The position numbers and the translations under genes are program-made. DNA of 13,894 bases from a virus (taxonomy: Duplodnaviria > Heunggongvirae > Uroviricota > Caudoviricetes). The notes under the pieces were generated by a model that had not been told where the DNA came from, did no database searches, and was given only the letters and a program-made list of their open reading frames with translations. The stretch spans positions 1 to 13,894 of the IMG/VR virus record IMGVR_UViG_2645728091_000007; one strand, written 5' to 3'. This document shows positions 1 through 13,894 of the stretch, one piece after another. Position 1 is the first letter of the stretch. Every line of letters begins with the position of its first letter.

Positions 1-1
1 C

Positions 2-1063
2 GGGGAGGAAGGAAACTACCGGATGGAAAGAGTCCCCCTAAAGCAGACTGACAGACATCACAAATCCCCGGGTGGGGATTTGTGTATAAGAGACAGACCA
101 GTAGCAGGGGAAAACATCCGCGATAATGCGCCAAATTTCCATAAATGGCTTGAACATGCTGCAAGAAAAGACCCGCGTAAGATGATGCGTATATGTGCCG
201 CGTTATACATGATTATGGCGAACCGCTACGACTGGCAGATGTTCATTGAGGCCACCGGAGACGGGGGAAGCGGTAAGAGTACATTTACCCATATTGCCAC
301 CCTGCTTGCTGGCAAACAGAACACCGTAAGCGCGGAGATGACATCACTCGATGATGCAGGAGGGCGCGCGCAGGTTGTCGGGAGTCGTCTTATCGTCCTT
401 GCCGATCAGCCGAAATATACGGGGGAAGGCACGGGCATCAAGAAAATCACGGGAGGCGATCCCGTTGAAATTAACCCGAAATATGAGAAGCGATTCACGA
501 CGATAATAAGGGCGGTGGTACTGGCAACCAATAACGACCCGATGATCTTTACCGAACGGGCCGGAGGTGTGTCACGCCGTCGGGTGATTTTCCGGTTCGA
601 CAACATTGTAAGGGAGGACGAAAAAGACAAGGAATTACCGGAAAAGATAGCGGCAGAAATCCCCGTAATTATCCGCCGCTTGCTGGCTAATTTTGCTGAC
701 CCTGAAAAGGCACGGGCTTTATTACTGGAACAGCGTGACGGTGATGAAGCTCTGGCAATAAAGCAGCAAACGGATCCGGTTGTTGAGCTTTGCGCGGCGC
801 TGGAGTTTCTGGAGGAAGCTCGTGGGCTAATGATGGGCGGTGGTGGTGACACCGTGAAGTACACGACCAGAAACAGCCTTTACCGTGTCTATATGGCCTT
901 CATGGCATACACAGGAAAGGGGAAATGTTTGAGCGTGAATGAGTTCGGAAAGGCTATGAGGTCAGCGGCGAAAGTTTACGGATATGAATATATTACGCGA
1001 AAAGTTAAGGGAGTCACGCAGACCAACGCAACGACTACTGATGATTGCGATGCGTTTTTATAA
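2..1063 (+). CDS. Primase-helicase, P4 alpha/D5 family, C-terminal portion (5'-partial; frame is open from the window edge)
   Basis: Walker A motif GDGGSGKST about 80 codons into the ORF, preceded by a D5_N-like segment (NFHKWLEHAARKDPRKMMRICAALYMI) and followed by a C-terminal region typical of P4-family primases. First in-frame ATG is at 23, but the frame is open from position 2. N-terminal primase domain is absent from the window. Confidence 0.7.
   Translation, partial: GEEGNYRMERVPLKQTDRHHKSPGGDLCIRDRPVAGENIRDNAPNFHKWLEHAARKDPRKMMRICAALYMIMANRYDWQMFIEATGDGGSGKSTFTHIATLLAGKQNTVSAEMTSLDDAGGRAQVVGSRLIVLADQPKYTGEGTGIKKITGGDPVEINPKYEKRFTTIIRAVVLATNNDPMIFTERAGGVSRRRVIFRFDNIVREDEKDKELPEKIAAEIPVIIRRLLANFADPEKARALLLEQRDGDEALAIKQQTDPVVELCAALEFLEEARGLMMGGGGDTVKYTTRNSLYRVYMAFMAYTGKGKCLSVNEFGKAMRSAAKVYGYEYITRKVKGVTQTNATTTDDCDAFL
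78..96 (-). mobile_element. Tn5/IS50-like 19-bp end sequence (element body would lie to the left)
   Basis: Reverse complement of 78-96 is CTGTCTCTTATACACAAAT. The first 16 nt equal the Tn5 mosaic end exactly; 17/19 match both the outside end (CTGACTCTTATACACAAGT) and the mosaic end. A 9-bp-stem palindrome CAAATCCCC-gggt-GGGGATTTG containing a SmaI site lies at 61-82. Confidence 0.3.
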
Positions 1064-1077
1064 AAAATGGCAATGGT

Positions 1078-1305
1078 TATCTACCTTGTCTACCTGACTG
1101 AAAGAAAATACTTTTATTTCAATGTATTAATGCAGGTAGATAACTATTTTTCACTGTCTACCTGTTATCTACCTTATCTACCCATTTTTGTAGACAGGTA
1201 AGGAGACGGGTAGAGATGAGGTAGACAGCTATTTGGGGCTGTCTACCTCCCTGAAACCCGCGCCATTACTGGCCTGATAACTAATCAGGTAGACAAGGTA
1301 GACAA
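1078..1305. repeat. Iteron cluster, about 11 copies of GGTAGACA / TGTCTACC in both orientations (putative ori or crr)
   Basis: Copies at about 1078, 1087, 1135, 1155, 1167, 1175, 1190, 1209, 1220, 1240, 1288 and 1297, including a direct tandem GGTAGACAAGGTAGACAAGG at 1288-1307. AT-rich context immediately downstream of the primase gene. Confidence 0.6.
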
Positions 1306-1352
1306 GGTGGTGGTGCACAAAAAACTTTTTAAACGAGGGGGTAAAAATAAAA

Positions 1353-1610
1353 ATGCACACATCAGGAAAACTGAACAAACATATAAAGCCACATTACCGC
1401 GCCCTTGATATGGCTGAACACTGGCTAAGGGTGGCGATTAAGGCAATAGACCGCAACGCCGGGGAAGGATACGCGAAAGCACATCCCGAACTGATAAGCG
1501 CATTCATGACAACGGCGGCTGCAAACTTTGCCACGCTGACCGAACGGGAGATTGCTGAAGCGGAGGAAGTGACAACAATCAATATTAAGTCCGGAGAGCT
1601 GGCAGCATGA
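1353..1610 (+). CDS. Hypothetical small protein (85 aa)
   Basis: ORF with a GAGGGGG Shine-Dalgarno about 12 nt upstream; its stop overlaps the SSB start (ATGA at 1607-1610), suggesting translational coupling. No family recognised. Confidence 0.5.
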   Translation: MHTSGKLNKHIKPHYRALDMAEHWLRVAIKAIDRNAGEGYAKAHPELISAFMTTAAANFATLTEREIAEAEEVTTINIKSGELAA

Positions 1611-2056
1611 CGGCGCAAATATCAGTTTACGGGCGGTTGGTGGACGACCCGCAGACAAAACAGACCAGCAAGGGCACCCCCATGACGCTGGCGCGTATGG
1701 CGGTATCACTGCCCTGCAGTCAGTCGGATGACGGTCTGGCGACGTTGTGGTTATCTGTCCTGGCGTTTGGCAGACAAGCCGACGCGCTGGCAAAGCATCA
1801 CAAAGGCGAACTCCTGAGCGTGGCGGGTAACATGCAGATGAGCCAGTGGACTGGACAGAACGGCGAAACGCGGCAGGGCTGGCAGGTTATCGCAGACAGC
1901 GTAATCAGTGCGCGATCGGTGCGACCGGGCGGCAAAAAAGGCCAACAGGGGCAGGCTACTGACGCACTGAACAGAGCAAAACAACAGGCAGATCAGCAAG
2001 GAAGCCAGCCACCAGAGGGAGATAATGAGCAATGGGGAGATGATATCCCGTTTTAA
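1607..2056 (+). CDS. ssb: Single-stranded DNA-binding protein
   Basis: N-terminal OB-fold-like region (ISVYGRLVDDPQ...), Q/G-rich linker, and C-terminal WGDDIPF matching the acidic tail of E. coli SSB (DFDDDIPF). Confidence 0.8.
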   Translation: MTAQISVYGRLVDDPQTKQTSKGTPMTLARMAVSLPCSQSDDGLATLWLSVLAFGRQADALAKHHKGELLSVAGNMQMSQWTGQNGETRQGWQVIADSVISARSVRPGGKKGQQGQATDALNRAKQQADQQGSQPPEGDNEQWGDDIPF

Positions 2057-2074
2057 ATATTGCCAATAAAAAAA

Positions 2075-2098
2075 GCCGGAAAAAATAAATTTTCCGGC
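2075..2098 (-). terminator. Stem-loop with a 9-bp perfect stem (GCCGGAAAA / TTTTCCGGC); looks like an intrinsic terminator on the minus strand
   Basis: On the minus strand the hairpin is followed by a run of 7 T (complement of the A-run at 2068-2074). On the plus strand no U-run follows. Sits in the SSB-capsid intergenic region. Confidence 0.3.
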
Positions 2099-2272
2099 AT
2101 GCTACATAAATCCCGACCAAAGGGAGTGAAGATATTAACACTAATTGTCCGCACTGAAGTTGTCACCCCAAAACTTTATACAACATTGCACTCGGTTGCA
2201 TGTGTTCGCATGACAAATATCGGTGATAGCATATATCCACAATTATTTTTAATGAATGCAAAGAGGATGCGT

Positions 2273-3313
2273 ATGGTTGATTTATATTCGCCTACTCAGC
2301 TTGTACAGGTAGTTAATGCTGTAGATGTACAAAAACAACTAAATGCGTTGTTTACCAGTTTGTTTTTTACTCGCTCGGTAATGTTTGAATCGCGCGATAT
2401 TATTCTTGATACAATCGACGATCCAAATATCCCAATTGCAGCGTTTTGTTCTCCTATGGTGGGTAGTAAAGTTTCACGTGACGAAGGGTACGAATCAAAA
2501 ACAATTCGTCCAGGCTATATGAAGCCGAAAAGCAGCATTGATCCAAATAAGTTAGCTGTGCGCCCTGCTGGTGTATCACCTGAGCAATACAATTCTTTTG
2601 GGGCGCGTAATATTAAAGTTAAACAGGCGATTGTAAATCAGGCTAAAGCTATTCGTGCACGTATTGAATGGCTTGCCGTTCAGGCAATCACAACGGGGAA
2701 AAATATCATTGAGGGCGATGGTATTGAACGTTATGAGCTGGACTGGAATATTAAACCACAAAATATCATCACTCAGTCTGGCGGTGCTGAGTGGTCAGGT
2801 AAGGATAAAGAAACTTTTGATCCAAATGATGATATTGATAGCTACGCAGAATTTAGTGAGGGCGTCACTAATATCATCATTATGGGCGGTAATGTATGGA
2901 AGAAATACCGTTCATTCAGAGCGATAAAAGAGGCTCTGGATACCCGTCGTGGTTCTAATTCCGAACTGGAAACGGCCCTTAAAGACCTTGGTGATTCGGT
3001 GAGTTTTAAAGGGTATATGGGCGATGTTGCGATTGTTGTATATAGCGGGCGTTATACCGACGAGGACGGAACTGAAAAACATTTCCTTGATCCTGATTTG
3101 ATGGTGCTTGGCAATACGGCTCTTCAGGGGATTGTCGCCTATGGAGGTATTCAGGATCCGGAGCTAATCCGAATGGGGCTGACTAAAGCCGAACTTGCAC
3201 CGAAAAACTATATTGTGCCTGGTGATCCGGCTATTGAATATGTGCAGACACATTCAGCACCACAGCCAATACCGGCCCGCATCAATCGTTTTGTTACCGT
3301 TCGCATTGGCTAA
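2273..3313 (+). CDS. Major capsid protein, lambda gpE family (divergent homolog, 346 aa)
   Basis: Similarity to lambda gpE along the full length (LFF near the N-terminus; QSGG.EWS..DK.T.DP.DDI; LDTRRGSNSELETA; GDVAIVVYSG). Start at 2273 chosen from the AAGAGG Shine-Dalgarno at 2261-2266 and alignment to gpE MSMY; the ORF track's upstream extension to 2060 has no homology. Confidence 0.8.
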   Translation: MVDLYSPTQLVQVVNAVDVQKQLNALFTSLFFTRSVMFESRDIILDTIDDPNIPIAAFCSPMVGSKVSRDEGYESKTIRPGYMKPKSSIDPNKLAVRPAGVSPEQYNSFGARNIKVKQAIVNQAKAIRARIEWLAVQAITTGKNIIEGDGIERYELDWNIKPQNIITQSGGAEWSGKDKETFDPNDDIDSYAEFSEGVTNIIIMGGNVWKKYRSFRAIKEALDTRRGSNSELETALKDLGDSVSFKGYMGDVAIVVYSGRYTDEDGTEKHFLDPDLMVLGNTALQGIVAYGGIQDPELIRMGLTKAELAPKNYIVPGDPAIEYVQTHSAPQPIPARINRFVTVRIG

Positions 3314-3322
3314 GGGGGAGCA

Positions 3323-3664
3323 ATGGCTACTCATTACACTGAACTCATGGCTGGCACTGAAGCACTGGTGACTACGCTGGGGATATTTTCAGCTAATAAA
3401 GGGGTAATTCCTGCATTTACGCCACTGATGCAGGAAGATGCAACAGGTGCACTGGTGGTATGGGATGGTTCGAGCGTAGGTAAAGCGGTTTATGTTTCCG
3501 CTGTACAAATCGACACCGCGAAAAAAACACAGGCTCAGGTCTATAAGACAGGTGTCTTAAATGTTGATGCTCTGAACTGGCCTGAGTCTGTTAAAGAACT
3601 GTCAGTAAAGGTTGCAGCGTTTGTTGGCTCAGGTATTTCTGTTCAGCCGCTGGCTCGTGTGTAA
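3323..3664 (+). CDS. Head decoration protein, lambda gpD family (113 aa)
   Basis: Alignable to lambda gpD (THY; TPLM; VVWDGS vs VAWDGT; YKTG vs YKSG; WPE; AF.G..IS). AAGGGGGAG Shine-Dalgarno directly after the capsid gene stop. Confidence 0.75.
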   Translation: MATHYTELMAGTEALVTTLGIFSANKGVIPAFTPLMQEDATGALVVWDGSSVGKAVYVSAVQIDTAKKTQAQVYKTGVLNVDALNWPESVKELSVKVAAFVGSGISVQPLARV

Positions 3665-3675
3665 AGGGGGATACA

Positions 3676-4059
3676 ATGCAGAATGATTACAATGACCTTA
3701 AGCCAATTGCCGAAATGATGTACCCGAATCCAGCTGTAGAGGAATTAAAAGCTATCGCTGACAAAATGTGTTTAAGCGAGCGCCTTGTTGATATGAATCA
3801 GGTGATGGAAATTACAACCCTGAGTCGTCGTACACTGCTAAACCTTGAGGCTAGTGGAGAGTTCCCGGAGCGTGTGCAGGTTACGGAAGGGCGTAAGGCC
3901 TGGTATTTAAGTGAAGTGATCGACTGGATAAATAATATTCCTCGCGCTTCTGAATATTGCCGCGTACCTGTCCCAAAAAAGCCAGATGCGGCGCTATGCC
4001 TCAAGATTGAGCGTGTACGCCGCAATGCACGGGATGGTCGCTATAAGCTGATTGGTTGA
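3676..4059 (+). CDS. AlpA-family (phage transcriptional regulator / excisionase-like) HTH protein with a ~40-aa N-terminal extension
   Basis: Segment MEITTLSRRTLLNLEASGEFPERVQVTEGRKAWYLSEVIDWINN resembles the AlpA/MerR-like HTH domain. Strong Shine-Dalgarno AAGGGGGAT before the ATG at 3676. Confidence 0.6.
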   Translation: MQNDYNDLKPIAEMMYPNPAVEELKAIADKMCLSERLVDMNQVMEITTLSRRTLLNLEASGEFPERVQVTEGRKAWYLSEVIDWINNIPRASEYCRVPVPKKPDAALCLKIERVRRNARDGRYKLIG

Positions 4060-4079
4060 TGAAATTAGGGCCCGCTCTG

Positions 4080-4149
4080 GCTGGCGGGTCCTTTCCGGTG
4101 ATCCAGAACGTTACGGGGCGGAAGGCGCGCGGGTTTTCGCTATTTATGA
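4080..4149 (+). other. Lambda-type cos site (cosQ/cosN-like) with a variant cohesive-end sequence
   Basis: GGCGGGTCCTTTCCGGTGATCC...GTTACG, then a 12-mer GGGCGGAAGGCG at 4116-4127 (lambda cosN is GGGCGGCGACCT), then CGCGGGTTTTCGCTATTTATGA matching the lambda left end as I recall it. Lies directly upstream of the Nu1-like gene. Confidence 0.6.
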
Positions 4150-4260
4150 GCATTTTAAGGGGACTGGTGGTGGTTTTGTTGTTCGCTGTATCTGTATGAA
4201 TAATAAGAGAAAAATACAATCAATACACCAACCTGAAACAGTAATTAAGTTGTGGTATCA

Positions 4261-4803
4261 ATGAAATTACACCTGATGAACAAAAAAAACATGGCAAAAA
4301 GTTGCCGTGTAAGCGCCACTGCGTTCGATAAGTGGGGAGTGATTCCCGTCGAGCGTAAGGGCCGTGAGGCGTTCTATGATGTTGCCAGTGTAATAGATAA
4401 TCGGGTTAACAATGCAATCAGCCAGATTACAAACGAAACGGGCGATATTGATGACGATGAACTTTTACGCGTCAGGATCAGATTACTGACAGCACAGGCA
4501 GAGGCGCAGGAGCTTAAAAACGAGCGCGAACGCGGCGACGTTATTGATACAGAGTTTTGTATGTATGTTCTTTCCAAACTGGCGAGTCAGATTTCATCTA
4601 TCATGGACAGCCTGCCGCTTACCATGCAAAGGCGCTTCCCACAGATGACTCCGGCTATGCTGGATGGACTTAAAAAGGAAGTGGCTAAAGCCTGTAATGC
4701 CAGTGCCGGCGTTGCTGACAACCTCCCACAGATACTGGCTGATTATCTGATGGAAAGTACAGGAAACGTACCGGATAAGTTGCAGCTGAATAAGGATAAG
4801 TAA
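4261..4803 (+). CDS. Terminase small subunit, lambda Nu1-like
   Basis: Similarity to lambda Nu1 in the middle and C-terminal parts (LTAQAEAQELKNERERGDVIDTEFCMYVLSKLASQISSIMDSLPLTMQRRFPQ vs lambda LTRAQADAQELKNARDSAEVVETAFCTFVLSRIAGEIASILDGLPLSVQRRFPE). N-terminal HTH region is divergent. Start is ambiguous: ATG at 4261, 4276 (best alignment to Nu1 MEVNKK) or GTG at 4252. Confidence 0.8.
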   Translation: MKLHLMNKKNMAKSCRVSATAFDKWGVIPVERKGREAFYDVASVIDNRVNNAISQITNETGDIDDDELLRVRIRLLTAQAEAQELKNERERGDVIDTEFCMYVLSKLASQISSIMDSLPLTMQRRFPQMTPAMLDGLKKEVAKACNASAGVADNLPQILADYLMESTGNVPDKLQLNKDK

Positions 4804-4814
4804 CGTAGTACGCT

Positions 4815-5090
4815 ATGACTGAATCCGAACTACTGAAAGTAATCTGCCATGCTGGTGGAGTCAGCCACCAGCATGACGAACAGACCACGCAGCCGGGCAG
4901 TGTCACCGCTGAAAATTACGCTCGTGTGGTTGCTGAGGTTATGTGGCGTGACGGTATAGAACTGAACGGACAGGATTGCTTAGTCATCCGCACCAAAGTG
5001 CTGGCTATACTGGCAGCTAGGCGGAGGCAGGGACAACGCCAGAACGTTGCATCGTACCAGTGGAAGAAGCCTGACAGACTGCGGCGATAA
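4815..5090 (+). CDS. Hypothetical protein (91 aa) in the position where a large terminase gene would be expected
   Basis: ORF only; no similarity to the lambda gpA N-terminus; weak RBS. Confidence 0.35.
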   Translation: MTESELLKVICHAGGVSHQHDEQTTQPGSVTAENYARVVAEVMWRDGIELNGQDCLVIRTKVLAILAARRRQGQRQNVASYQWKKPDRLRR

Positions 5091-5492
5091 CTCTTTGATT
5101 TTCTCGACGGCCCCAAAATGGGCCTTACCATAGCCAGCTAATAAATGAGCAAGCCTCAAAAGTGAGGTTTGTGGCCGTTTGGCCTATTCATATGCTAACT
5201 CGTTGATATTCCTGACGACGCAAATTTACGCCTTGTGGCTGGTAGTCGAATTGCAAATTTGCAACTCAACTATGAAACTACAGGTAGTTTGGGTAGTAAA
5301 AGCAACACACTGATTTTGGGGCTTCTTCGCGATACCTAATATTATGGTATCGGTGGAAGAGATATCGTTTCTCATAGGTTAGCACCGAGGGCGGAGTTCC
5401 GCCCTCATCGAAAAATTGCTTACGAGTCGTCAAAATAAATTAATCGACTGAGTATAATGATTAACTAATTGCTCGTGTTACTTCATTATACG

Positions 5493-6254
5493 TTATTTCC
5501 CATCTTTAAGGTTTAACCAAGTGTTAATTAAAAAAAGAGCCATTGAACCTGATAAATTTACTGCAAGTTCGGCATGCCTTGGGGATGGCTTAATTGATGA
5601 GCTGTTCGTTCCATGTGCATCACCGAGTTTATTACGAAGAGTACCTAACCCATTTACAACTGCAGAACAACCGCCGAGAATTTGTTTGAAGATATTTTCA
5701 GTATGTTGGTCGGCAGATAGGTTAAGTTCTTTTGAAAGAGTTTTATAAAGCTCTGACATTTCAATATTTTTATTATTATACTGAATGCCCATATCATCAA
5801 GAATGTGTTTGCAAACTGTTTCAAGAAGTGTTCTTGCGGAGGTTATCGCACCATCCGGATCTGTATGGCGCCGTTCAAGTGCTTTTATCCAAACGGCGTG
5901 GACTCCATCCTCGTTAAACTTTCTTAATACATCAGATATGTCTTCATCCGCTGGAGCTTTATTTTTCCCTTCTAGATAGTCCAGCATCGGCTGAAATGCC
6001 TTATAAATCAAATCTCTCCGGGGGGCATACTTTTCAGTCTTTTTTATAAATCCCCAAAATTCTTTTAGTGAGCGATTAGTTCTCACAAACTCTGGTAATA
6101 GCTGATGTAAAGGAGGATTTTGTAAGAAATATGTTCTTAGAAGCAAATAATCATTATTAGCTTCATCCTGGGCTCCTGTAGCTCTTGCAATTAGTATGTT
6201 TTGAAGCGCTACTGCGCGCTCTAGGTCATTTTGAAGGGTATCTATAATATTCAT
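5493..6254 (-). CDS. Abortive-infection-like protein with a C-terminal HEPN-type Rx6H motif (Abi_C-like)
   Basis: 253-aa ORF on the minus strand. C-terminal GTLRNKLGDAHG fits the HEPN Rx4-6H motif and my recollection of Abi_C-family proteins. AT-rich gene flanked by noncoding DNA, consistent with acquired cargo. Confidence 0.5.
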   Translation of the reverse strand: MNIIDTLQNDLERAVALQNILIARATGAQDEANNDYLLLRTYFLQNPPLHQLLPEFVRTNRSLKEFWGFIKKTEKYAPRRDLIYKAFQPMLDYLEGKNKAPADEDISDVLRKFNEDGVHAVWIKALERRHTDPDGAITSARTLLETVCKHILDDMGIQYNNKNIEMSELYKTLSKELNLSADQHTENIFKQILGGCSAVVNGLGTLRNKLGDAHGTNSSSIKPSPRHAELAVNLSGSMALFLINTWLNLKDGK

Positions 6255-6314
6255 AACAAATCTTTATTCACTTCATTTGTGGGTTGATAATTGAATGGTT
6301 TGTACATTGATTTC

Positions 6315-6337
6315 TGTGTATTGCAGTGTGTATTGCA
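6315..6337. repeat. Tandem direct repeat TGTGTATTGCA(G) x2 in the putative promoter region of the Abi-like gene
   Basis: TGTGTATTGCAG followed by TGTGTATTGCAA at 6315-6337, upstream of the minus-strand start at 6254. Confidence 0.3.
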
Positions 6338-6427
6338 ACATAGCCATTCAGGTAGAGATTATGCTCTATTTTTCCTCTTATATCATTCACATACTTACAC
6401 CATTGACTCATGTAACCCAAGCATGAG

Positions 6428-7204
6428 GTGAATCCGCAGATGACCCTGCGTCGCCTGCCGGATGAAGATCCGCAGAATCTGGCGGACCCGGCTTACCGCC
6501 GCCGTCGCATCATCCTGCAGAACATGCGTGACGAGGAGCTGGCCATTGCCCAGGTCGAAGAGATGCAGGCCGTTTCTGCCGTGCTTAAGGGCAAATACAC
6601 CATGACCGGTGAAGCCTTCGATCCGGTTGAGGTGGATATGGGCCGCAGTGCGGCGAATAACATCACGCAGTCCGGCGGCACGGAGTGGAGTAAGCGTGAT
6701 AAGTCCACGTATGACCCGACCGACGATATCGAAGCCTACGCGCTGAACGCCAGCGGTGTGGTGAATATCATCGTGTTTGATCCGAAAGGCTGGGCGCTGT
6801 TCCGTTCCTTCAAAGCCGTCAGGGAGAAGCTGGATACCCGTCGCGGCTCTCATTCCGAACTGGAGACAGCGGTAAAAGACCTGGGCAAAGCGGTGTCTTA
6901 TAAGGGAATGTATGGCGATGTGGCCATCGTCGTGTATTCCGGACAGTACGTGGAAAATGGTGTCAAAAAGAACTTCCTGCCGGACAACACGATGGTGCTG
7001 GGCAACACTCAGGCACGCGGTCTGCGCACCTATGGCTGCATTCAGGATGCGGACGCACAGCGCGAAGGCATTAACGCCTCTGCCCGTTACCCGAAAAACT
7101 GGGTGACCACCGGCGATCCGGCGCGTGAGTTCACCATGATTCAGTCAGCACCGCTGATGCTGCTGGCTGACCCTGATGCGTTCGTGTCCGTACAACTGGC
7201 GTAA
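6428..7204 (+). pseudogene. E: Major capsid protein gpE, 5'-truncated (C-terminal ~260 codons, lambda-like)
   Basis: Translation matches lambda gpE from about residue 82 (NPQMTLRRLPDEDPQNLADPAYRRRRI...) to the C-terminus (...FVSVQLA). In-frame upstream codons KHE are preserved but a TAA occurs at 6413-6415 and homology ends near 6410. The N-terminal ~80 codons are missing. Confidence 0.8.
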
Positions 7205-7206
7205 TC

Positions 7207-7224
7207 ATGGCCCTTCGGGGCCAT
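7207..7224 (+). other. Stem-loop ATGGCCC-TTCG-GGGCCAT after the E stop, followed by a T-rich tract
   Basis: Perfect 7-bp stem with a TTCG tetraloop; matches the E-FI intergenic hairpin of lambda as I recall it. Confidence 0.5.
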
Positions 7225-7245
7225 TTTCTCTCTGTGGAGGAGTCC

Positions 7246-7641
7246 ATGACGAAAGATGAACTGATTGCCCGTCTTCAGGTGCTGGGTGAGCAACTGAACC
7301 GTGATGTCAGCCTGACGGGGACGAAAGAAGAACTGGCGCTCCGTGTGGCAGAGCTGGAAGAGGAGCTTGATGACACGGATGACGCTGCCGGTCAGGACAC
7401 GTCTGTCAGCCCGGAAAATGCGCTGACCGGGCATGAAAATGAGGTGGTGTCAGCGCAGCCGGGTACCGTGACTGATACGGCTGATCTGGTCACGGTTGTG
7501 GCACTGGTGACGCTGCATACTGATGCACTTCACGCCACGCGGGATGAGGCTGTGGCATTTGTGCTGCCGGGAACGGCGTTCCGTGTTTCTGCCAGTGTGG
7601 CAGCCGAAATGACAGAACATGGCCTGGCCAGAATGCAATAA
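7246..7641 (+). CDS. FI: DNA packaging / head assembly protein FI
   Basis: MTKDELIARLQ...GLARMQ matches lambda gpFI. GGAGGA Shine-Dalgarno at 7236-7241. The ORF-track start at 7207 is an upstream in-frame extension. Confidence 0.85.
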   Translation: MTKDELIARLQVLGEQLNRDVSLTGTKEELALRVAELEEELDDTDDAAGQDTSVSPENALTGHENEVVSAQPGTVTDTADLVTVVALVTLHTDALHATRDEAVAFVLPGTAFRVSASVAAEMTEHGLARMQ

Positions 7642-7652
7642 CGGGAGGCGCT

Positions 7653-8006
7653 GTGGCTGATTTCGATAACCTGTTCGATGCTGCCATTGCCCGCGCCGAT
7701 GAAACGATACGCGGGTACATGGGAACGTCAGCCACCATGACATCCGGTGAGCAGTCCGGCGCAGTAATACGTGGTGTTTTTGATGACCCTGAAAATATCA
7801 GCTATGCCGGACAGGGCGTGCGTGTTGAAGGCTCCAGCCCGTCCCTGTTTGTCCGGACTGATGATGTGCGGCAGCTGCGGCGCGGCGACACGCTGACCAT
7901 CGGTGAGGAAAACTTCTGGATAGACCGGATTTCACCGGATGATGGCGGAAGCTGTCATCTCTGGCTTGGGCGTGGCGTACCGCCTGCCGTTAACCGTCGC
8001 CGCTGA
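7653..8006 (+). CDS. FII: Head-tail joining protein FII
   Basis: GTG start with GGGAGG Shine-Dalgarno; MADFDNLFDAAIARADETIRGYMG... matches lambda gpFII (117 aa). Confidence 0.9.
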   Translation: MADFDNLFDAAIARADETIRGYMGTSATMTSGEQSGAVIRGVFDDPENISYAGQGVRVEGSSPSLFVRTDDVRQLRRGDTLTIGEENFWIDRISPDDGGSCHLWLGRGVPPAVNRRR

Positions 8007-8017
8007 AAGGGGGATGT

Positions 8018-8596
8018 ATGGCCATAAAAGGTCTTGAGCAGGCCGTTGAAAACCTCAGCCGTATCAGCAAAACGGCAGTGCCCGGTGCCGCCGCAATGGC
8101 CATTAACCGCGTGGCCACAACCGCAATAAAGCAGTCGGCGTCACAGGTTGCCCGTGAGACAAAGGTACGCCGGAAACTGGTAAAGGAAAGGGCCAGGCTG
8201 AAAAGGGCCACGGTCAAAAATCCGCAGGCCAGAATCAAGGTTAACCGGGGGGATTTGCCCGTAATCAAGCTGGGGAATGCGCGGGTTGTCCTGTCCCGCC
8301 GCAGGCGTCGTAAAAAGGGGCAGCGTTCATCCCTGAAAGGTGGCGGCAGCGTGCTTGTGGTGGGAAACCGTCGTATTCCCGGCGCGTTTATTCAGCAACT
8401 GAAAAATGGCCGGTGGCATGTCATGCAGCGTGTGGCCGGGAAAAACCGTTACCCCATTGATGTGGTGAAAATCCCGATGGCGGTGCCGCTGACCACGGCG
8501 TTTAAACAGAATATTGAACAGATACGGCGTGAACGTTTGCCGAAAGAACTGGAATACGCCCTGAAACAACAACTGAGGATTGCGATAAAGCGATGA
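8018..8596 (+). CDS. Z: Tail completion protein Z
   Basis: 192 aa, MAIKGLEQAVENLSRISKTAVPGAAAMAINRVA... matches lambda gpZ. AAGGGGGAT Shine-Dalgarno. Confidence 0.9.
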   Translation: MAIKGLEQAVENLSRISKTAVPGAAAMAINRVATTAIKQSASQVARETKVRRKLVKERARLKRATVKNPQARIKVNRGDLPVIKLGNARVVLSRRRRRKKGQRSSLKGGGSVLVVGNRRIPGAFIQQLKNGRWHVMQRVAGKNRYPIDVVKIPMAVPLTTAFKQNIEQIRRERLPKELEYALKQQLRIAIKR

Positions 8597-8988
8597 AACA
8601 TACTGAACTCCGTGCAGCCGTACTGGATGCACTGGAGAAGCATGACACCGGGGCGACGCTTTTTGATGGTCGCCCCGCTGTTTTTGATGAGGCGGATTTT
8701 CCGGCAGTTGCCGTTTATCTCACCGGCGCTGAATACACGGGCGAAGAGCTGGACAGCGATACCTGGCAGGCGGAGCTGCATATCGAAGTTTTCCTGCCTG
8801 CTCAGGTGCCGGATTCAGAGCTGGATTCGTGGATGGAGTCCCGGATTTATCCGGTGATGAGCGATATCCCGGCACTGTCAGATTTGATCACCAGTATGGT
8901 GGCCAGCGGCTATGACTACCGGCGCGACGATGATGCGGGCCTGTGGAGTTCAGCCGATCTGACTTATGTCATTACCTATGAAATGTGA
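8593..8988 (+). CDS. U: Tail terminator protein U
   Basis: 131 aa, [22 protein letters not shown]... matches lambda gpU. ATGA overlap with the Z stop. Confidence 0.9.
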
Positions 8989-8995
8989 GGACGCT

Positions 8996-9736
8996 ATGCC
9001 TGTACCAAATCCTGTAATGCCGGTGAAAGGTGCCGGGACCACCCTGTGGGTTTATAAGGGGAGCGGTGACCCTTATGCGAACCCGCTTTCAGACGTTGAC
9101 TGGTCGCGTCTGGCAAAAGTTAAAGACCTGACGCCCGGCGAACTGACCGCTGAGTCCTATGACGACAGCTATCTCGATGATAAAGATGCAGACTGGACTG
9201 CGACCGGGCAGGGGCAGAAATCTGCCGGAGATACCAGCTTCACGCTGGCGTGGATGCCCGGAGAGCAGGGGCAGCAGGCGCTGCTGGCGTGGTTTAATGA
9301 AGGTGATACCCGTGCCTATAAAATCCGCTTCCCGAACGGCACGGTCGATGTGTTCCGTGGCTGGGTCAGCAGTATCGGTAAGGCGGTGACGGCGAAGGAA
9401 GTGATCACCCGCACGGTGAAAGTCACCAATGTGGGACGTCCGTCGATGGCAGAAGATCGCAGCACGGTAACAGCGGCCACCGGCATGACGGTAACGCCAG
9501 CCAGTGCTTCCGTAGTGAAAGGGCAGAGCACTACGCTGACCGTGGCATTCCAGCCGGAGGGCGTAACCGACAAGAGCTTTCGTGCGGTGTCTGCGGATAA
9601 AACAAAAGCCACCGTGTCGGTCAGTGGTATGACCATCACCGTGAACGGCGTTGCTGCAGGCAAGGTCAACATTCCGGTTGTATCCGGTAATGGTGAGTTT
9701 GCTGCGGTTGCAGAAATTACCGTCACCGCCAGTTAA
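8996..9736 (+). CDS. V: Major tail protein V
   Basis: [36 protein letters not shown]... matches lambda gpV (246 aa), including the C-terminal Ig-like region. GAGGA Shine-Dalgarno; the ORF-track start at 8966 is an upstream extension overlapping U. Confidence 0.9.
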
Positions 9737-9751
9737 TCCGGAGAGTCAGCG

Positions 9752-10174
9752 ATGTTCCTGAAAACCGAATCATTTGAACATAACGGTGTGACCGTCACGC
9801 TTTCTGAACTGTCAGCCCTGCAGCGTATTGAGCATCTTGCCTGGTTGAAAGAGCAGGAAAAAAAGGCTGAATCCAGTGGCAACCTGCAGGTGTCTGTAGA
9901 GGATCTTATCAGAGGCGGGGCGTTTCTGGTGGCGATGTCTCTGTGGCATAACCATCCGCAGAAGACAAAGCTGCCGTCCATGAATGAAGCCATTACGCAG
10001 ATTGAGCAGGAAGTGCTTACCACCTGGCCCACGGAGGCAATTGCTCAGGCTGAAAACGTGGTGTTACGTCTGTCCGGAATGTCTGAGTTTGTGGTGAATA
10101 ATGCCCCTGAACAGGCAGAGGACGCCGGGCCTGCAGAGCCTGTTTCTGCGGGAAAGTGTTCGACGGTGAGCTGA
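9752..10174 (+). CDS. G: Tail assembly chaperone G
   Basis: 140 aa, MFLKTESFEHNGVTVTLSELSALQRIEHLA... ending ...PVSAGKCSTVS as in lambda gpG. Middle region differs from lambda at several residues. Confidence 0.9.
   Translation: MFLKTESFEHNGVTVTLSELSALQRIEHLAWLKEQEKKAESSGNLQVSVEDLIRGGAFLVAMSLWHNHPQKTKLPSMNEAITQIEQEVLTTWPTEAIAQAENVVLRLSGMSEFVVNNAPEQAEDAGPAEPVSAGKCSTVS
10150..10156 (+). promoter_or_regulatory. Programmed -1 ribosomal frameshift slippery heptamer G GGA AAG (G into T frame)
   Basis: Heptamer GGGAAAG lies in the G zero frame as G-GGA-AAG near the 3' end of G. The T frame (10156-10590) is -1 relative to G and has no start codon of its own with an RBS. Confidence 0.85.
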
Positions 10175-10590
10175 GTTTTGCCCTGAAACTGGCGCGCGAG
10201 ATGGGGCGACCCGACTGGCGCGCCATGCTTGCCGGGATGTCATCCACGGAGTATGCCGACTGGCACCGCTTTTACAGTACCCATTATTTTCATGATGTTC
10301 TGCTGGATATGCACTTTTCCGGGCTGACGTACACCGTGCTCAGCCTGTTTTTCAGCGATCCGGATATGCATCCGCTGGATTTCAGTCTGCTGAACCGGCG
10401 TGAGGCTGACGAAGAGCCTGAAGATGATGTGCTGATGCAGAAAGCGGCAGGGCTTGCCGGAGGTGTCCGCTTTGGCCCGGACGGGAATGAAGTTATCCCC
10501 GCTTCCCCGGATGTGGCGGACATGACGGAGGATGACGTAATGCTGATGACAGTATCAGAAGGGATCGCAGGAGGAGTCCGGTATGGCTGA
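10156..10590 (+). CDS. T: Tail assembly protein T segment, expressed as a G-T fusion by -1 frameshifting (fusion would span 9752-10590)
   Basis: Translation FDGELSFALKLAREMGRPDWRAMLAGMSSTEYADWHRFYSTHYFHD... matches lambda gpT; frame is -1 relative to G. Confidence 0.85.
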   Translation: MFDGELSFALKLAREMGRPDWRAMLAGMSSTEYADWHRFYSTHYFHDVLLDMHFSGLTYTVLSLFFSDPDMHPLDFSLLNRREADEEPEDDVLMQKAAGLAGGVRFGPDGNEVIPASPDVADMTEDDVMLMTVSEGIAGGVRYG

Positions 10591-13144
10591 ACCGGTAGGC
10601 GATCTGGTCGTTGATTTGAGTCTGGATGCGGCCAGATTTGACGAGCAGATGGCCAGAGTCAGGCGTCATTTTTCCGGTACGGAAAGTGATGCGAAAAAAA
10701 CAGCGGCAGTCGTTGAACAGTCAATGAACCGGCAGGCGCTGGCTGCACAGAAAGCGGGGATTTCCGTCGGGCAGTATAAAGCCGCCATGCGTATGCTGCC
10801 TGCACAGTTCACCGACGTGGCCACGCAGCTTGCAGGCGGGCAAAGTCCGTGGCTGATCCTGCTGCAACAGGGGGGTCAGGTTAAGGACTCCTTCGGCGGG
10901 ATGATCCCCATGTTCAGGGGGCTTGCCGGTGCGATCACCCTGCCGATGGTGGGGGCCACCTCGCTGGCGGTGGCGACCGGTGCGCTGGCGTATGCCTGGT
11001 ATCAGGGCAACTCAACCCTGTCCGATTTCAACAAAACGCTGGTCCTTTCCGGCAATCAGGCGGGACTGACGGCAGATCGTATGCTGGTCCTGTCCAGAGC
11101 CGGGCAGGCGGCAGGGCTGACGTTTAACCAGACCAGCGAGTCACTCAGCGCACTGGTTAAGGCGGGGGTAAGCGGTGAGGCTCAGATTGCGTCCATCAGC
11201 CAGAGTGTGGCGCGTTTCTCCTCTGCATCCGGCGTGGAGGTGGACAAGGTCGCTGAAGCCTTCGGGAAGCTGACCACAGACCCGACGTCGGGGCTGACGG
11301 CGATGGCACGCCAGTTCCATAACGTGACGGCGGAGCAGATTGCGTATGTTGCTCAGTTGCAGCGTTCCGGCGATGAAGCCGGGGCATTGCAGGCGGCGAA
11401 CGAGGCCGCAACGAAAGGGTTTGATGACCAGACCCGCCGCCTGAAAGAGAACATGGGCACGCTGGAGACCTGGGCAGACAGGACTGCGCGGGCATTCAAA
11501 TCCATGTGGGATGCGGTGCTGGATATTGGTCGTCCTGATACCGCGCAGGAGATGCTGATTAAGGCAGAGGCTGCGTTTAAGAAAGCAGACGACATCTGGA
11601 ATCTGCGCAAGGATGATTATTTTGTTAACGATGAAGCGCGGGCGCGTTACTGGGATGATCGTGAAAAGGCCCGTCTTGCGCTTGAAGCCGCCCGAAAGAA
11701 GGCTGAGCAGCAGACTCAACAGGACAAAAATGCGCAGCAGCAGAGCGATACCGAAGCGTCACGGCTGAAATATACCGAAGAGGCGCAGAAGGCTTACGAA
11801 CGGCTGCAGACGCCGCTGGAGAAATATACCGCCCGTCAGGAAGAACTGAACAAGGCACTGAAAGACGGGAAAATCCTGCAGGCGGATTACAACACGCTGA
11901 TGGCGGCGGCGAAAAAGGATTATGAAGCGACGCTGAAAAAGCCGAAACAGTCCGGCGTGAAGGTGTCTGCGGGCGATCGTCAGGAAGACAGTGCTCATGC
12001 TGCCCTGCTGACGCTTCAGGCAGAACTCCGGACGCTGGAGAAGCATGCCGGAGCAAATGAGAAAATCAGCCAGCAGCGCCGGGATTTGTGGAAGGCGGAG
12101 AGTCAGTTCGCGGTACTGGAGGAGGCGGCGCAACGTCGCCAGCTGTCTGCACAGGAGAAATCCCTGCTGGCGCATAAAGATGAGACGCTGGAGTACAAAC
12201 GCCAGCTGGCTGCACTTGGCGACAAGGTTACGTATCAGGAGCGCCTGAACGCGCTGGCGCAGCAGGCGGATAAATTCGCACAGCAGCAACGGGCAAAACG
12301 GGCCGCCATTGATGCGAAAAGCCGGGGGCTGACTGACCGGCAGGCAGAACGGGAAGCCACGGAACAGCGCCTGAAGGAACAGTATGGCGATAATCCGCTG
12401 GCGCTGAATAACGTCATGTCAGAGCAGAAAAAGACCTGGGCGGCTGAAGACCAGCTTCGCGGGAACTGGATGGCAGGCCTGAAGTCCGGCTGGAGTGAGT
12501 GGGAAGAGAGCGCCACGGACAGTATGTCGCAGGTAAAAAGTGCTGCCACGCAGACCTTTGATGGTATTGCACAGAATATGGCGGCGATGCTGACCGGCAG
12601 TGAGCAGAACTGGCGCAGCTTCACCCGTTCCGTGCTGTCCATGATGACAGAAATTCTGCTTAAGCAGGCAATGGTGGGGATTGTCGGGAGTATCGGCAGC
12701 GCCATTGGCGGGGCTGTTGGTGGCGGCGCATCCGCGTCAGGCGGTACAGCCATTCAGGCCGCTGCGGCGAAATTCCATTTTGCAACCGGAGGATTTACGG
12801 GAACCGGCGGCAAATATGAGCCAGCGGGGATTGTTCACCGTGGTGAGTTTGTCTTCACGAAGGAGGCAACCAGCCGGATTGGCGTGGGGAATCTTTACCG
12901 GCTGATGCGCGGCTATGCCACCGGCGGTTATGTCGGTACACCGGGCAGCATGGCAGACAGCCGGTCGCAGGCGTCCGGGACGTTTGAGCAGAATAACCAT
13001 GTGGTGATTAACAACGACGGCACGAACGGGCAGATAGGTCCGGCTGCTCTGAAGGCGGTGTATGACATGGCCCGCAAGGGTGCCCGTGATGAAATTCAGA
13101 CACAGATGCGTGATGGTGGCCTGTTCTCCGGAGGTGGACGATGA
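10583..13144 (+). CDS. H: Tail tape measure protein H
   Basis: 853 aa, MAEPVGDLVVDLSLDAARFDEQMARVRRHF... matches lambda gpH in length and sequence. AGGAGGA Shine-Dalgarno. Confidence 0.95.
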   Translation: MAEPVGDLVVDLSLDAARFDEQMARVRRHFSGTESDAKKTAAVVEQSMNRQALAAQKAGISVGQYKAAMRMLPAQFTDVATQLAGGQSPWLILLQQGGQVKDSFGGMIPMFRGLAGAITLPMVGATSLAVATGALAYAWYQGNSTLSDFNKTLVLSGNQAGLTADRMLVLSRAGQAAGLTFNQTSESLSALVKAGVSGEAQIASISQSVARFSSASGVEVDKVAEAFGKLTTDPTSGLTAMARQFHNVTAEQIAYVAQLQRSGDEAGALQAANEAATKGFDDQTRRLKENMGTLETWADRTARAFKSMWDAVLDIGRPDTAQEMLIKAEAAFKKADDIWNLRKDDYFVNDEARARYWDDREKARLALEAARKKAEQQTQQDKNAQQQSDTEASRLKYTEEAQKAYERLQTPLEKYTARQEELNKALKDGKILQADYNTLMAAAKKDYEATLKKPKQSGVKVSAGDRQEDSAHAALLTLQAELRTLEKHAGANEKISQQRRDLWKAESQFAVLEEAAQRRQLSAQEKSLLAHKDETLEYKRQLAALGDKVTYQERLNALAQQADKFAQQQRAKRAAIDAKSRGLTDRQAEREATEQRLKEQYGDNPLALNNVMSEQKKTWAAEDQLRGNWMAGLKSGWSEWEESATDSMSQVKSAATQTFDGIAQNMAAMLTGSEQNWRSFTRSVLSMMTEILLKQAMVGIVGSIGSAIGGAVGGGASASGGTAIQAAAAKFHFATGGFTGTGGKYEPAGIVHRGEFVFTKEATSRIGVGNLYRLMRGYATGGYVGTPGSMADSRSQASGTFEQNNHVVINNDGTNGQIGPAALKAVYDMARKGARDEIQTQMRDGGLFSGGGR

Positions 13145-13470
13145 AGACCTTCCGCTGGAAAGTGAAACCCGGTATGGATGTGGCTTCGGTCCCTTCTGTA
13201 AGAAAGGTGCGCTTTGGTGATGGCTATTCTCAGCGAGCGCCTGCCGGGCTGAATGCCAACCTGAAAACGTACAGCGTGACGCTTTCTGTCCCCCGTGAGG
13301 AGGCCACGGTACTGGAGTCGTTTCTGGAAGAGCACGGGGGCTGGAAAGCCTTTCTGTGGACGCCGCCTTATGAGTGGCGGCAGATAAAGGTGACCTGCGC
13401 AAAATGGTCGTCGCGGGTCAGTATGTTGCGTGTTGAGTTCAGCGCAGAGTTTGAACAGGTGGTGAACTGA
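13141..13470 (+). CDS. M: Tail tip assembly protein M
   Basis: 109 aa, MKTFRWKVKPGMDVASVPSVRKVRFGDGYSQRAPAGLNANLK... matches lambda gpM. ATGA overlap with the H stop. Confidence 0.9.
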   Translation: MKTFRWKVKPGMDVASVPSVRKVRFGDGYSQRAPAGLNANLKTYSVTLSVPREEATVLESFLEEHGGWKAFLWTPPYEWRQIKVTCAKWSSRVSMLRVEFSAEFEQVVN

Positions 13471-13894
13471 TGCAGGATATCCGGCAGGAAACACTGAATG
13501 AATGCACCCGTGCGGAGCAGTCTGCCAGCGTGGTGCTCTGGGAAATCGACCTGACAGAGGTCGGTGGAGAACGTTATTTTTTCTGTAATGAGCAGAACGA
13601 AAAAGGTGAGCCGGTCACCTGGCAGGGGCGACAGTATCAGCCGTATCCCATTCAGGGGAGCGGTTTTGAACTGAATGGCAAAGGCACCAGTACGCGCCCC
13701 ACGCTGACGGTTTCTAACCTGTACGGTATGGTCACCGGGATGGCGGAAGATCTGCAGAGTCTGGTCGGCGGAACGGTGGTCCGGCGTAAGGTTTACGCCC
13801 GTTTTCTGGATGCGGTGAACTTCGTCAACGGAAACAGTTACGCCGATCCGGAGCAGGAGGTGATCAGCCGCTGGCGCATTGAGCAGTGCAGCGA
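13470..13894 (+). CDS. L: Tail tip protein L (3'-partial; runs off the window end)
   Basis: ATG at 13470 overlaps the M stop by 1 nt. Translation MQDIRQETLNECTRAEQSASVVLWEIDLTEVGGERYFFCNEQNEKGEP... matches the lambda gpL N-terminus. Not in the ORF track because no stop is reached. Confidence 0.9.
   Translation, partial: MQDIRQETLNECTRAEQSASVVLWEIDLTEVGGERYFFCNEQNEKGEPVTWQGRQYQPYPIQGSGFELNGKGTSTRPTLTVSNLYGMVTGMAEDLQSLVGGTVVRRKVYARFLDAVNFVNGNSYADPEQEVISRWRIEQCS

Follow-up and report, generated by a model that had tools for sequence, protein, structure and literature searches.

The question raised by this locus is what a solitary gene does in the low-GC gap between packaging genes and an interrupted capsid gene, and on what kind of element it is carried. 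The locus lies in IMG/VR record IMGVR_UViG_2645728091_000007 (Caudoviricetes), of which positions 1 to 13,894 were analyzed (13,894 nucleotides, hereafter the window). An earlier note had described a minus-strand open reading frame (ORF) of 253 amino acids (aa) with the motif RNKLGDAHG in low-GC DNA, and it is present as described, at 5493-6254 with the motif at aa 207-215 and a GC content of 0.35-0.40 over 5400-6400 versus 0.45-0.60 on both sides. The gene, here called abi, probably specifies a defence protein of the abortive-infection type that acts alone and belongs to the Abi_C branch of the HEPN superfamily; the gene is accessory cargo of a helper-embedded phage-inducible chromosomal island (HE-PICI), at the island end next to the attachment site (att). 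Domain identity, motif, selection, solitary status and cargo position were established by computation. The gene and the parts of its product are as follows.

5493..6254, minus strand: abi, an intact ATG-start ORF of 253 codons (253 aa) with a two-domain product; stop codon at 5493-5495
5964..6254, minus strand: N-terminal domain, aa 1-97, a four-helix bundle without family assignment
5499..5945, minus strand: C-terminal HEPN module, aa 104-252, with helices 104-112, 115-128, 133-154, 166-176, 187-210 and 225-252
5526..5753, minus strand: match to Pfam Abi_C PF14355, aa 168-243, profile positions 2-82 of 83, E=1.3e-23, 83.3 bits against a gathering cutoff of 24
5610..5636, minus strand: catalytic-type motif RNKLGDAHG (R207-N-K-L-G-D212-A-H214-G215), aa 207-215, of the HEPN Rx6H form

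The abi product is RefSeq WP_001021158.1 (identical protein cluster P0001), which is named 'abortive infection family protein'. The earlier note had proposed the Abi_C/HEPN assignment and a Pfam profile search in which a lack of HEPN or Abi homology would have spoken against it; Abi_C PF14355 was matched at 83.3 bits, and the assignment stands. PHROG 23253 ('unknown function') aligns over the full length of the protein. In a large protein database 5,746 homologues were found at E<=1e-3, the best 120 of which are nearly all full-length at ~250 aa and all carry PF14355, while those of the 120 that bear a name go by 'abortive infection family protein' or 'abortive phage resistance protein'. The 50%-identity cluster representatives gave 3,440 matches at E<=1e-3 and 437 at E<=1e-30. 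A sequence search of the PDB gave no relative (best E=1.1, spurious). The earlier note had taken the C-terminal motif as evidence for HEPN, and its conclusion was right, but the bare Rx4-6H pattern is no evidence by itself because 67% of composition-preserving shuffles of the protein contain one, which is not above chance; it is the extended form RNxxGDxHG, found in 0.005% of such shuffles, together with the profile that carries the case.

As a putative HEPN ribonuclease (RNase), abi could be the toxin of a toxin-antitoxin (TA) or addiction module that stabilizes the satellite or the satellite-helper pair, with an antitoxin (small protein or RNA) that went unrecognized. No obvious partner gene had been seen before, and no conserved neighbour or flank appeared in the contexts compared. 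These comprise five independent contexts, which have no neighbour gene in common. The Klebsiella pneumoniae orthologue (86% identity) is chromosomal, with an insertion sequence (IS) element, a SIR2_2 gene and a type VI secretion system (T6SS) cluster in its locus, the K. oxytoca and Enterobacter homologues stand at the end of fis-integrated satellites, and another homologue is flanked by housekeeping genes on a chromosome without phage genes nearby. In the K. pneumoniae locus (L002), a 672-aa protein without Pfam hit is encoded at 7912-9930, 70 bp upstream of the abi orthologue on the same strand, and the SIR2_2 gene follows abi. This arrangement may represent a defence system of its own or supply a partner at this locus, and it is missing from the window and from the other abi contexts.

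Nor does any noncoding element travel with abi, as nucleotide similarity to other loci spans only from 11 nt before the ATG to the stop codon, and a conserved noncoding partner of the type III TA kind was rejected on the ground that no flank is conserved beyond the ORF. No tandem repeats adjoin abi except the att motif of the island itself, and an Rfam search of 4700-6600 at E<=1 returned only a chance miRNA match; with the unconserved flanks, this sets abi apart from type III TA systems (AbiV, AbiF, ToxIN-like). No MNT-type ORF was found in the abi cassette or its flanks, nor next to homologues, and thus abi is not a HEPN-MNT type II/VII TA system. The sole adjacent small gene is the following.

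4815..5090, plus strand: 91-aa hypothetical gene (PHROG 1561, function unknown), convergent with abi

It was rejected as a partner because it follows the small terminase gene (TerS) in all Abi-less PICIs examined and hence belongs to the PICI core. The HEPN protein Tha of a Staphylococcus aureus prophage is controlled by an overlapping antisense gene, Ith (PMC11087260). Stop-free stretches are present on the antisense strand of abi as well, coinciding with the most conserved protein region, and an overlapping inhibitor of this type was rejected, synonymous divergence being saturated with no clear dip. The TA reading is therefore unlikely, with neither MNT nor conserved neighbour, no flank in common, no tandem-repeat RNA or Rfam match, no overlapping ORF under constraint, and an adjacent small gene that Abi-less islands share; moreover, SadR of S. 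aureus, also an Abi_C protein, functions as a single gene (PMC13590631). Because neighbours differ by context, similarity ends at the ORF, and no MNT, Rfam match, repeat array or antisense constraint was seen, a stand-alone, single-gene abi is supported as far as genomics allows.

The carrier of abi is, by layout and insertion site, assignable to the published HE-PICI type at site E:Phage_cap_E:80 of a lambdoid prophage, which is exemplified by '11capE' (PMC10111431). It has the integrase, alpA, primase and late-gene layout, is inserted in and co-oriented with a lambdoid gene E at about profile codon 80, and is bounded by a 10-bp att block. The island occupies 1-6423 of the window and the helper 6414-13894, so that the window equals the right two-thirds of the HE-PICI plus the helper head-tail genes; it holds only the attR half, and the attL junction was read from a complete Escherichia coli genome (L001). 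There abi is the last gene of a ~10.7-kb island (L001 10582-21324), which reads integrase, helix-turn-helix (HTH) gene, putAbiC-family gene, Icd-like gene, primase, single-stranded DNA-binding protein (SSB), the island's own E-, D- and Nu1-type genes, AlpA-type regulator, hypothetical gene and abi. The features of the window that define the island and the abi cassette are, from left to right:

2273..3313: lambda E homologue of the island itself
3323..3664: lambda D homologue of the island itself
4252..4803: Nu1-type small terminase gene (TerS), an island late gene
5237..5281: conserved island segment with the palindrome AATTGCAAATTTGCAA, which directly abuts the att arm in Abi-less islands and marks the left cassette junction
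about 5282..6281: abi cargo cassette of ~1.0 kb, holding abi together with a 3' flank of 211 bp and, ahead of the ATG, just ~27 bp, delimited by blastn and alignment against the Abi-less islands L016 and L020
5387..5406: perfect 9-bp GC-rich hairpin (GAGGGCGGA-gt-TCCGCCCTC), 87 nt downstream of the abi stop codon, in the cassette between convergent genes
6282..6413: attP arm on the attR side, with 93% identity to Abi-less HE-PICIs
6315..6337, plus strand: doubled motif TGTGTATTGCA x2, the HE-PICI-specific attP motif, its end 81 bp away from the centre of the att core and the motif itself 61-83 bp upstream of the abi start codon
6414..6423, plus strand: 10-bp att core AACCCAAGCA (attR), the right satellite boundary, with the same 10-mer at the attL junction in L001
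6428..7204, plus strand: 3' part of the helper major capsid gene E (Phage_cap_E profile positions 94-328 of 329), annotated by PGAP as 'major capsid protein, missing N-terminus'

The earlier note had spoken of a truncated E gene. A 3' fragment of E does adjoin the island, with coding sequence that resumes at ~6415 and homologues of FI, FII, Z, U, V, G, T and H after it, but the gene is not decayed; it is split by site-specific insertion of the island, with AACCCAAGCA at both junctions. A 10-bp identity block has also been reported for 11capE (PMC10111431). For this class, the published form of the doubled attP motif is tgTGTATTGCantgTGTATTGCa, located 81+/-2 bp away from the centre of attP (PMC10111431), and a second, degenerate copy of it occurs near attL in L001. 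The long noncoding flanks that had been noted around abi have lengths of 402 bp (left) and 159 bp (right), and the right-hand one is the attP arm, because the doubled motif lies at 6315-6337, 81 bp from the core centre. A lambda-type cos site in the noncoding flanks was considered and rejected, with no cosN-like match in 5091-6430 and matches at chance level elsewhere.

The island possesses its own E, D and Nu1 homologues while it interrupts the E gene of its helper, which agrees with the 11capE type as published and with the suggestion, made for it, of a capsid gene kept as back-up. At window positions 1-1400, the primase region (ORF 23-1063, DUF5906/Pox_D5, its upstream part lying beyond the window) finds no match by megablast in the L001 island, although the two islands are otherwise 97% identical; the replication module is therefore mosaic among islands with the same late genes and abi cassette. 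As well, the L001 island carries beyond the window a second gene with an abortive-infection annotation, a putAbiC PF16872 gene (L001 12240-12923, minus strand, E=2.8e-16), which is integrase-proximal and antisense to the main direction of the island, and both island ends may hold defence cargo.

Placed between the Nu1-type TerS gene with the 91-aa hypothetical gene on the left and the lambda-type gene E fragment on the right, abi stands beside the attP arm and is convergent with the island late genes. The cargo position proposed in the earlier note is borne out by islands in which abi is present or missing in an otherwise related background. The Abi-less E-gene HE-PICIs L016 and L020 read ...CTATGAAACT joined directly to TAATAATCGAA..., and in the window ~1.0 kb with abi parts these halves. 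The slot between late/packaging genes and att is empty in L016, L017, L018, L019 and L020, which gives it the variable content and fixed position of a PICI accessory cargo slot, with 'empty' and 'abi' as the only states seen. PICIs reportedly have, as Fillol-Salom and colleagues are said to have described in Cell in 2022, an accessory immune-system slot with defence genes at the att-proximal end; abi, likewise att-proximal, matches this general description. Because only ~27 bp upstream of the ATG are cassette-specific, the abi promoter must lie at least partly in the att arm 6282-6413.

Several noncoding features were also observed around the cassette. The palindrome TAGTCGAATTGCAAATTTGCAACTCAACTA at 5243-5272 is ~79% conserved in Abi-less HE-PICIs. 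Its half-sites, TTGCAA, are similar to the doubled attP motif in its core (TGTATTGCA), and the protein that binds the motif may bind here too. The 141-nt region with the hairpin at 5387-5406 folds better than 200 of 200 shuffles (z=-3.45), and the hairpin was not called an intrinsic terminator, as there is no U-tract on either strand; nor did the terminator scan call it. In Abi-less PICIs, the hypothetical gene after TerS is followed by 600-800 bp without annotated gene, up to the att site or the gene that flanks the island (L016 5837-6566, L017 5837-6642, L018 6082-6791 and L019 6081-6680).

The distribution of abi was followed in 5,426 complete E. coli genomes, of which 41 (0.76%) carry it, always in the same context, at full length, unflagged and 99.9% identical, from human, poultry, pig, goat, dog, kite and river isolates. 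The att arm of this island occurs in 46 genomes, 41 with and five without the cassette. The 99.9% identity in 41 genomes of diverse hosts and countries, with only five att arms lacking the cassette, suggests recent spread of one successful helper-satellite-abi combination. Outside E. coli, Abi_C homologues of 68-70% identity occupy the terminal slot of two satellite architectures downstream of fis in K. oxytoca and Enterobacter (L006-L012), one with a fused protease-capsid gene plus a DUF927 or D5 primase, and the other resembling capsid-forming PICIs (cfPICIs), with TerL, TerS, HNH, connectors and portal. These fis-site homologues also read inward from the att site, and abi has evidently been exchanged among satellite families. 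The family is found on 196 plasmid records across Proteobacteria and is almost absent from sequenced phage genomes (four weak matches). Members of it thus recur at the same terminal position in satellites of other types, on plasmids and in a chromosomal locus that resembles a defence island.

A second explanation has to be weighed here, namely that abi is an RNase acting on the helper and not on foreign phages, which tunes or interferes with late expression or processes read-through late transcripts to favour packaging of the satellite; it would then be an interference factor of the satellite instead of a part of host immunity. Satellites commonly encode functions that interfere with the helper (PMC10111431), and abi does adjoin the packaging module of a satellite embedded in the helper late operon. 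However, the closest orthologue (86% identity) sits in a non-satellite chromosomal locus beside a SIR2_2 gene, and since relatives also occur on plasmids across Proteobacteria and at chromosomal sites without phage genes nearby, the function cannot depend on a particular helper. The antisense orientation of abi to the late operon, moreover, points to expression in lysogeny rather than on induction, which leaves a role against the helper quite unlikely.

The fold and the conservation of the protein bear on whether a defence protein of this kind would act as an RNase. In an AlphaFold2 model the protein is all-helical (pLDDT 83) with a low-confidence linker at about residues 95-110, and the C-terminal domain is a four-helix up-down bundle, the HEPN fold. 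HEPN active-site motifs sit between the third and fourth core helices, and in the model the abi motif takes this position, after helix 187-210 and before helix 225-252. An alignment of 58 homologues (57-85% identical) has R207, N208, D212, H214 and G215 invariant, along with a further block in the helices preceding the motif (R128, R129, D132, E145, C148 and K149). A HEPN domain that is a non-catalytic scaffold for nucleotide or protein binding, so that abi acts other than by RNA cleavage or has no defence role, is very improbable given these invariant R, N, D, H and G residues, a register matching the one that is catalytic in SadR (PMC13590631), and a HEPN core in which constraint is stronger (pN 0.09-0.19) than anywhere else in the protein.

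Both domains of abi are under strong purifying selection, with dN/dS=0.084 at a synonymous divergence (dS) of ~1 against the 86%-identical Klebsiella orthologue, and equally low in either domain. A decaying passenger without current function, for which one could cite the low-GC foreign DNA and the presence of abi in only 0.76% of complete E. coli genomes, is hardly tenable and already contradicted by these selection data (dN/dS 0.08), by the full-length, unflagged gene in 41/41 genomes and by thousands of full-length homologues. Among five orthologues, the N-terminal domain has two to four times the non-synonymous divergence of the HEPN core, and some relatives have a different region before about residue 95-100 or an added extension of ~130 aa. 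P0143, P0150, P0151, P0156, P0157, P0226 and similar proteins either have a 110-360-aa N-terminal extension before the full two-domain unit or match only from about residue 95 on, with unrelated N-termini in front. A variable N-terminal part joined to a conserved HEPN part would be the pattern expected of a sensing or regulatory domain joined to a catalytic one, and the N-terminal domain is thus a candidate sensor or regulator.

Among characterized proteins, SadR of S. aureus comes closest to the abi product: it is an Abi_C protein that works singly, bears the motif RNEYGDAH, breaks down RNA in vitro and stops phages as well as the uptake of plasmids (PMC13590631). Its substitutions R225A, N226A and H232A abolish both RNase and defence activity, and its escape mutants map to a phage single-strand annealing protein (SSAP) (PMC13590631). 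SadR and abi are alike in several respects: each is a single gene on or near mobile elements whose product of ~250-270 aa ends in an Abi_C/HEPN domain, the two motifs (RNEYGDAH in SadR, RNKLGDAH in abi) share one register, with five residues separating the polar residue from H, and each falls into the class with no recognized N-terminal domain (NTD), to which most Abi_C proteins belong. They differ in that SadR is from Bacillota and abi from Enterobacteriaceae, in the carrier, which here is a helper-embedded PICI, and in that RNase activity and phage/plasmid restriction were demonstrated for SadR and are predicted for abi.

AbiJ (Abi-859) of Lactococcus lactis, the founding Abi_C protein, is likewise a single-gene abortive-infection determinant on a mobile element with a C-terminal HEPN/Abi_C domain, and its escape mutants also map to the SSAP (PMC13064643). 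However, ~160 N-terminal positions of the AbiJ profile are unmatched, the N-terminal domain of abi is a different four-helix bundle, and no AbiJ_NTD3/4/5 Pfam domain was found in the protein at E<=1, so that it lacks the full-length likeness, N-terminal domain included, of AbiJ proper. Taranis, from a Vibrio cholerae integron cassette, is a single Abi_C protein with experimentally demonstrated anti-phage activity that was also reported near integrases in Klebsiella and Burkholderia, and the same preprint mentions Abi_C systems in Klebsiella PICIs (bioRxiv 10.1101/2024.07.02.601686). It differs from abi in an N-terminus distantly related to AbiJ_NTD5, which was not detected here, and in residing in an integron cassette rather than a satellite. 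Tha/Ith of the S. aureus prophage (PMC11087260) and HepS of Gifsy-1 (PDB 9oik) belong to different HEPN families. The abi product is hence a member of the Abi_C family with the HEPN fold and motif, and is neither AbiJ proper nor part of a HEPN-MNT or type III TA system.

As for the carrier, 11capE shares with the present island the organisation, the site E:Phage_cap_E:80, the 10-bp att core and the doubled attP motif, whereas all its non-hypothetical genes are unidirectional and here an antisense Abi_C gene stands between the packaging genes and attR (PMC10111431). The HE-PICI paper reports no defence cargo, and no Abi_C entry appears in the portions of its supplements that were searched (PMC10111431).

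Several points weigh against the reading of abi as an HEPN-RNase defence gene. Some HEPN domains are non-catalytic, and the confidence of the AlphaFold2 model is lowest exactly at motif residues 212-215. For the N-terminal domain, structure comparison found no informative relative. The AbiJ model of PADLOC matches aa 129-243 (E=2e-21) with only model positions 162-274 of 281 aligned, and the likeness to SadR, Taranis and lactococcal AbiJ was drawn from published motifs, descriptions and profiles rather than direct alignment. No experimental report on WP_001021158.1 or its close relatives was found in the papers searched, none of which mentions the accession. Lastly, transcription of abi is assumed, while a promoter and terminator scan near the gene gave nothing above shuffle expectation, the sole promoter-like match (6386->6358, minus strand) not exceeding chance.

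Under the preferred reading, abi as a stand-alone defence gene, the activity, trigger, dimerisation and outcome are projected from SadR and from HEPN RNases in general. The protein would be made from its own promoter during lysogeny and held inactive until a competing phage infects the cell; a product of that phage, probably sensed by the variable N-terminal domain, would switch it on. Single-strand annealing and recombination proteins would be the leading trigger candidates because SadR and AbiJ escape mutants map there, and it is a possibility hinted at by these escape data that the abi subfamily senses phage recombination (SSAP) activity. Upon activation, two HEPN domains would pair to form a composite RNase site from two Rx6H motifs. 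The metal-independent endoribonuclease activity, dependent on R and H, that marks the HEPN superfamily has been shown for the Abi_C protein SadR (PMC13590631) and is predicted for abi. RNA cleavage would then arrest the cell or the phage programme, and the lysogen population would be protected together with the helper prophage and the satellite.

More speculatively, it is plausible that prophage induction silences abi by transcriptional collision, sparing helper and satellite from self-targeting; this is proposed because abi is convergent with a late operon that is thought to read through the island (PMC10111431). A bolder version, which we consider doubtful, is that a HEPN defence gene in a HE-PICI has a built-in on/off switch. 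Antisense to the late operon and with its promoter in the integrase/AlpA-bound attP arm, ~60 bp from the doubled motif, abi would be on in the lysogen and shut by read-through and/or by Int/AlpA binding and excision that alter the promoter context, with no dedicated inhibitor needed for helper and satellite to escape autoimmunity, and the subfamily would possibly sense SSAP activity.

In terms of novelty, abi is an additional Abi_C defence-type gene on a known carrier type, with a RefSeq name already in existence; it places a known family on a carrier that is itself of a known kind, and leaves the current picture of phage defence unchanged. The signal that activates Abi_C proteins of the 'no-NTD' class and the restraint of their toxicity are open questions, made explicit for SadR (PMC13590631), and abi offers a compact single-gene E. 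coli model for this large class. If active, abi would add a defence gene to the HE-PICI class, whose published description mentions no immune cargo, and in Enterobacteriaceae the same Abi_C subfamily would be shown to pass between HE-PICIs, fis PICIs, cfPICIs, plasmids and chromosomal islands. Finally, the helper-embedded antisense geometry makes the question of autoimmunity directly testable.
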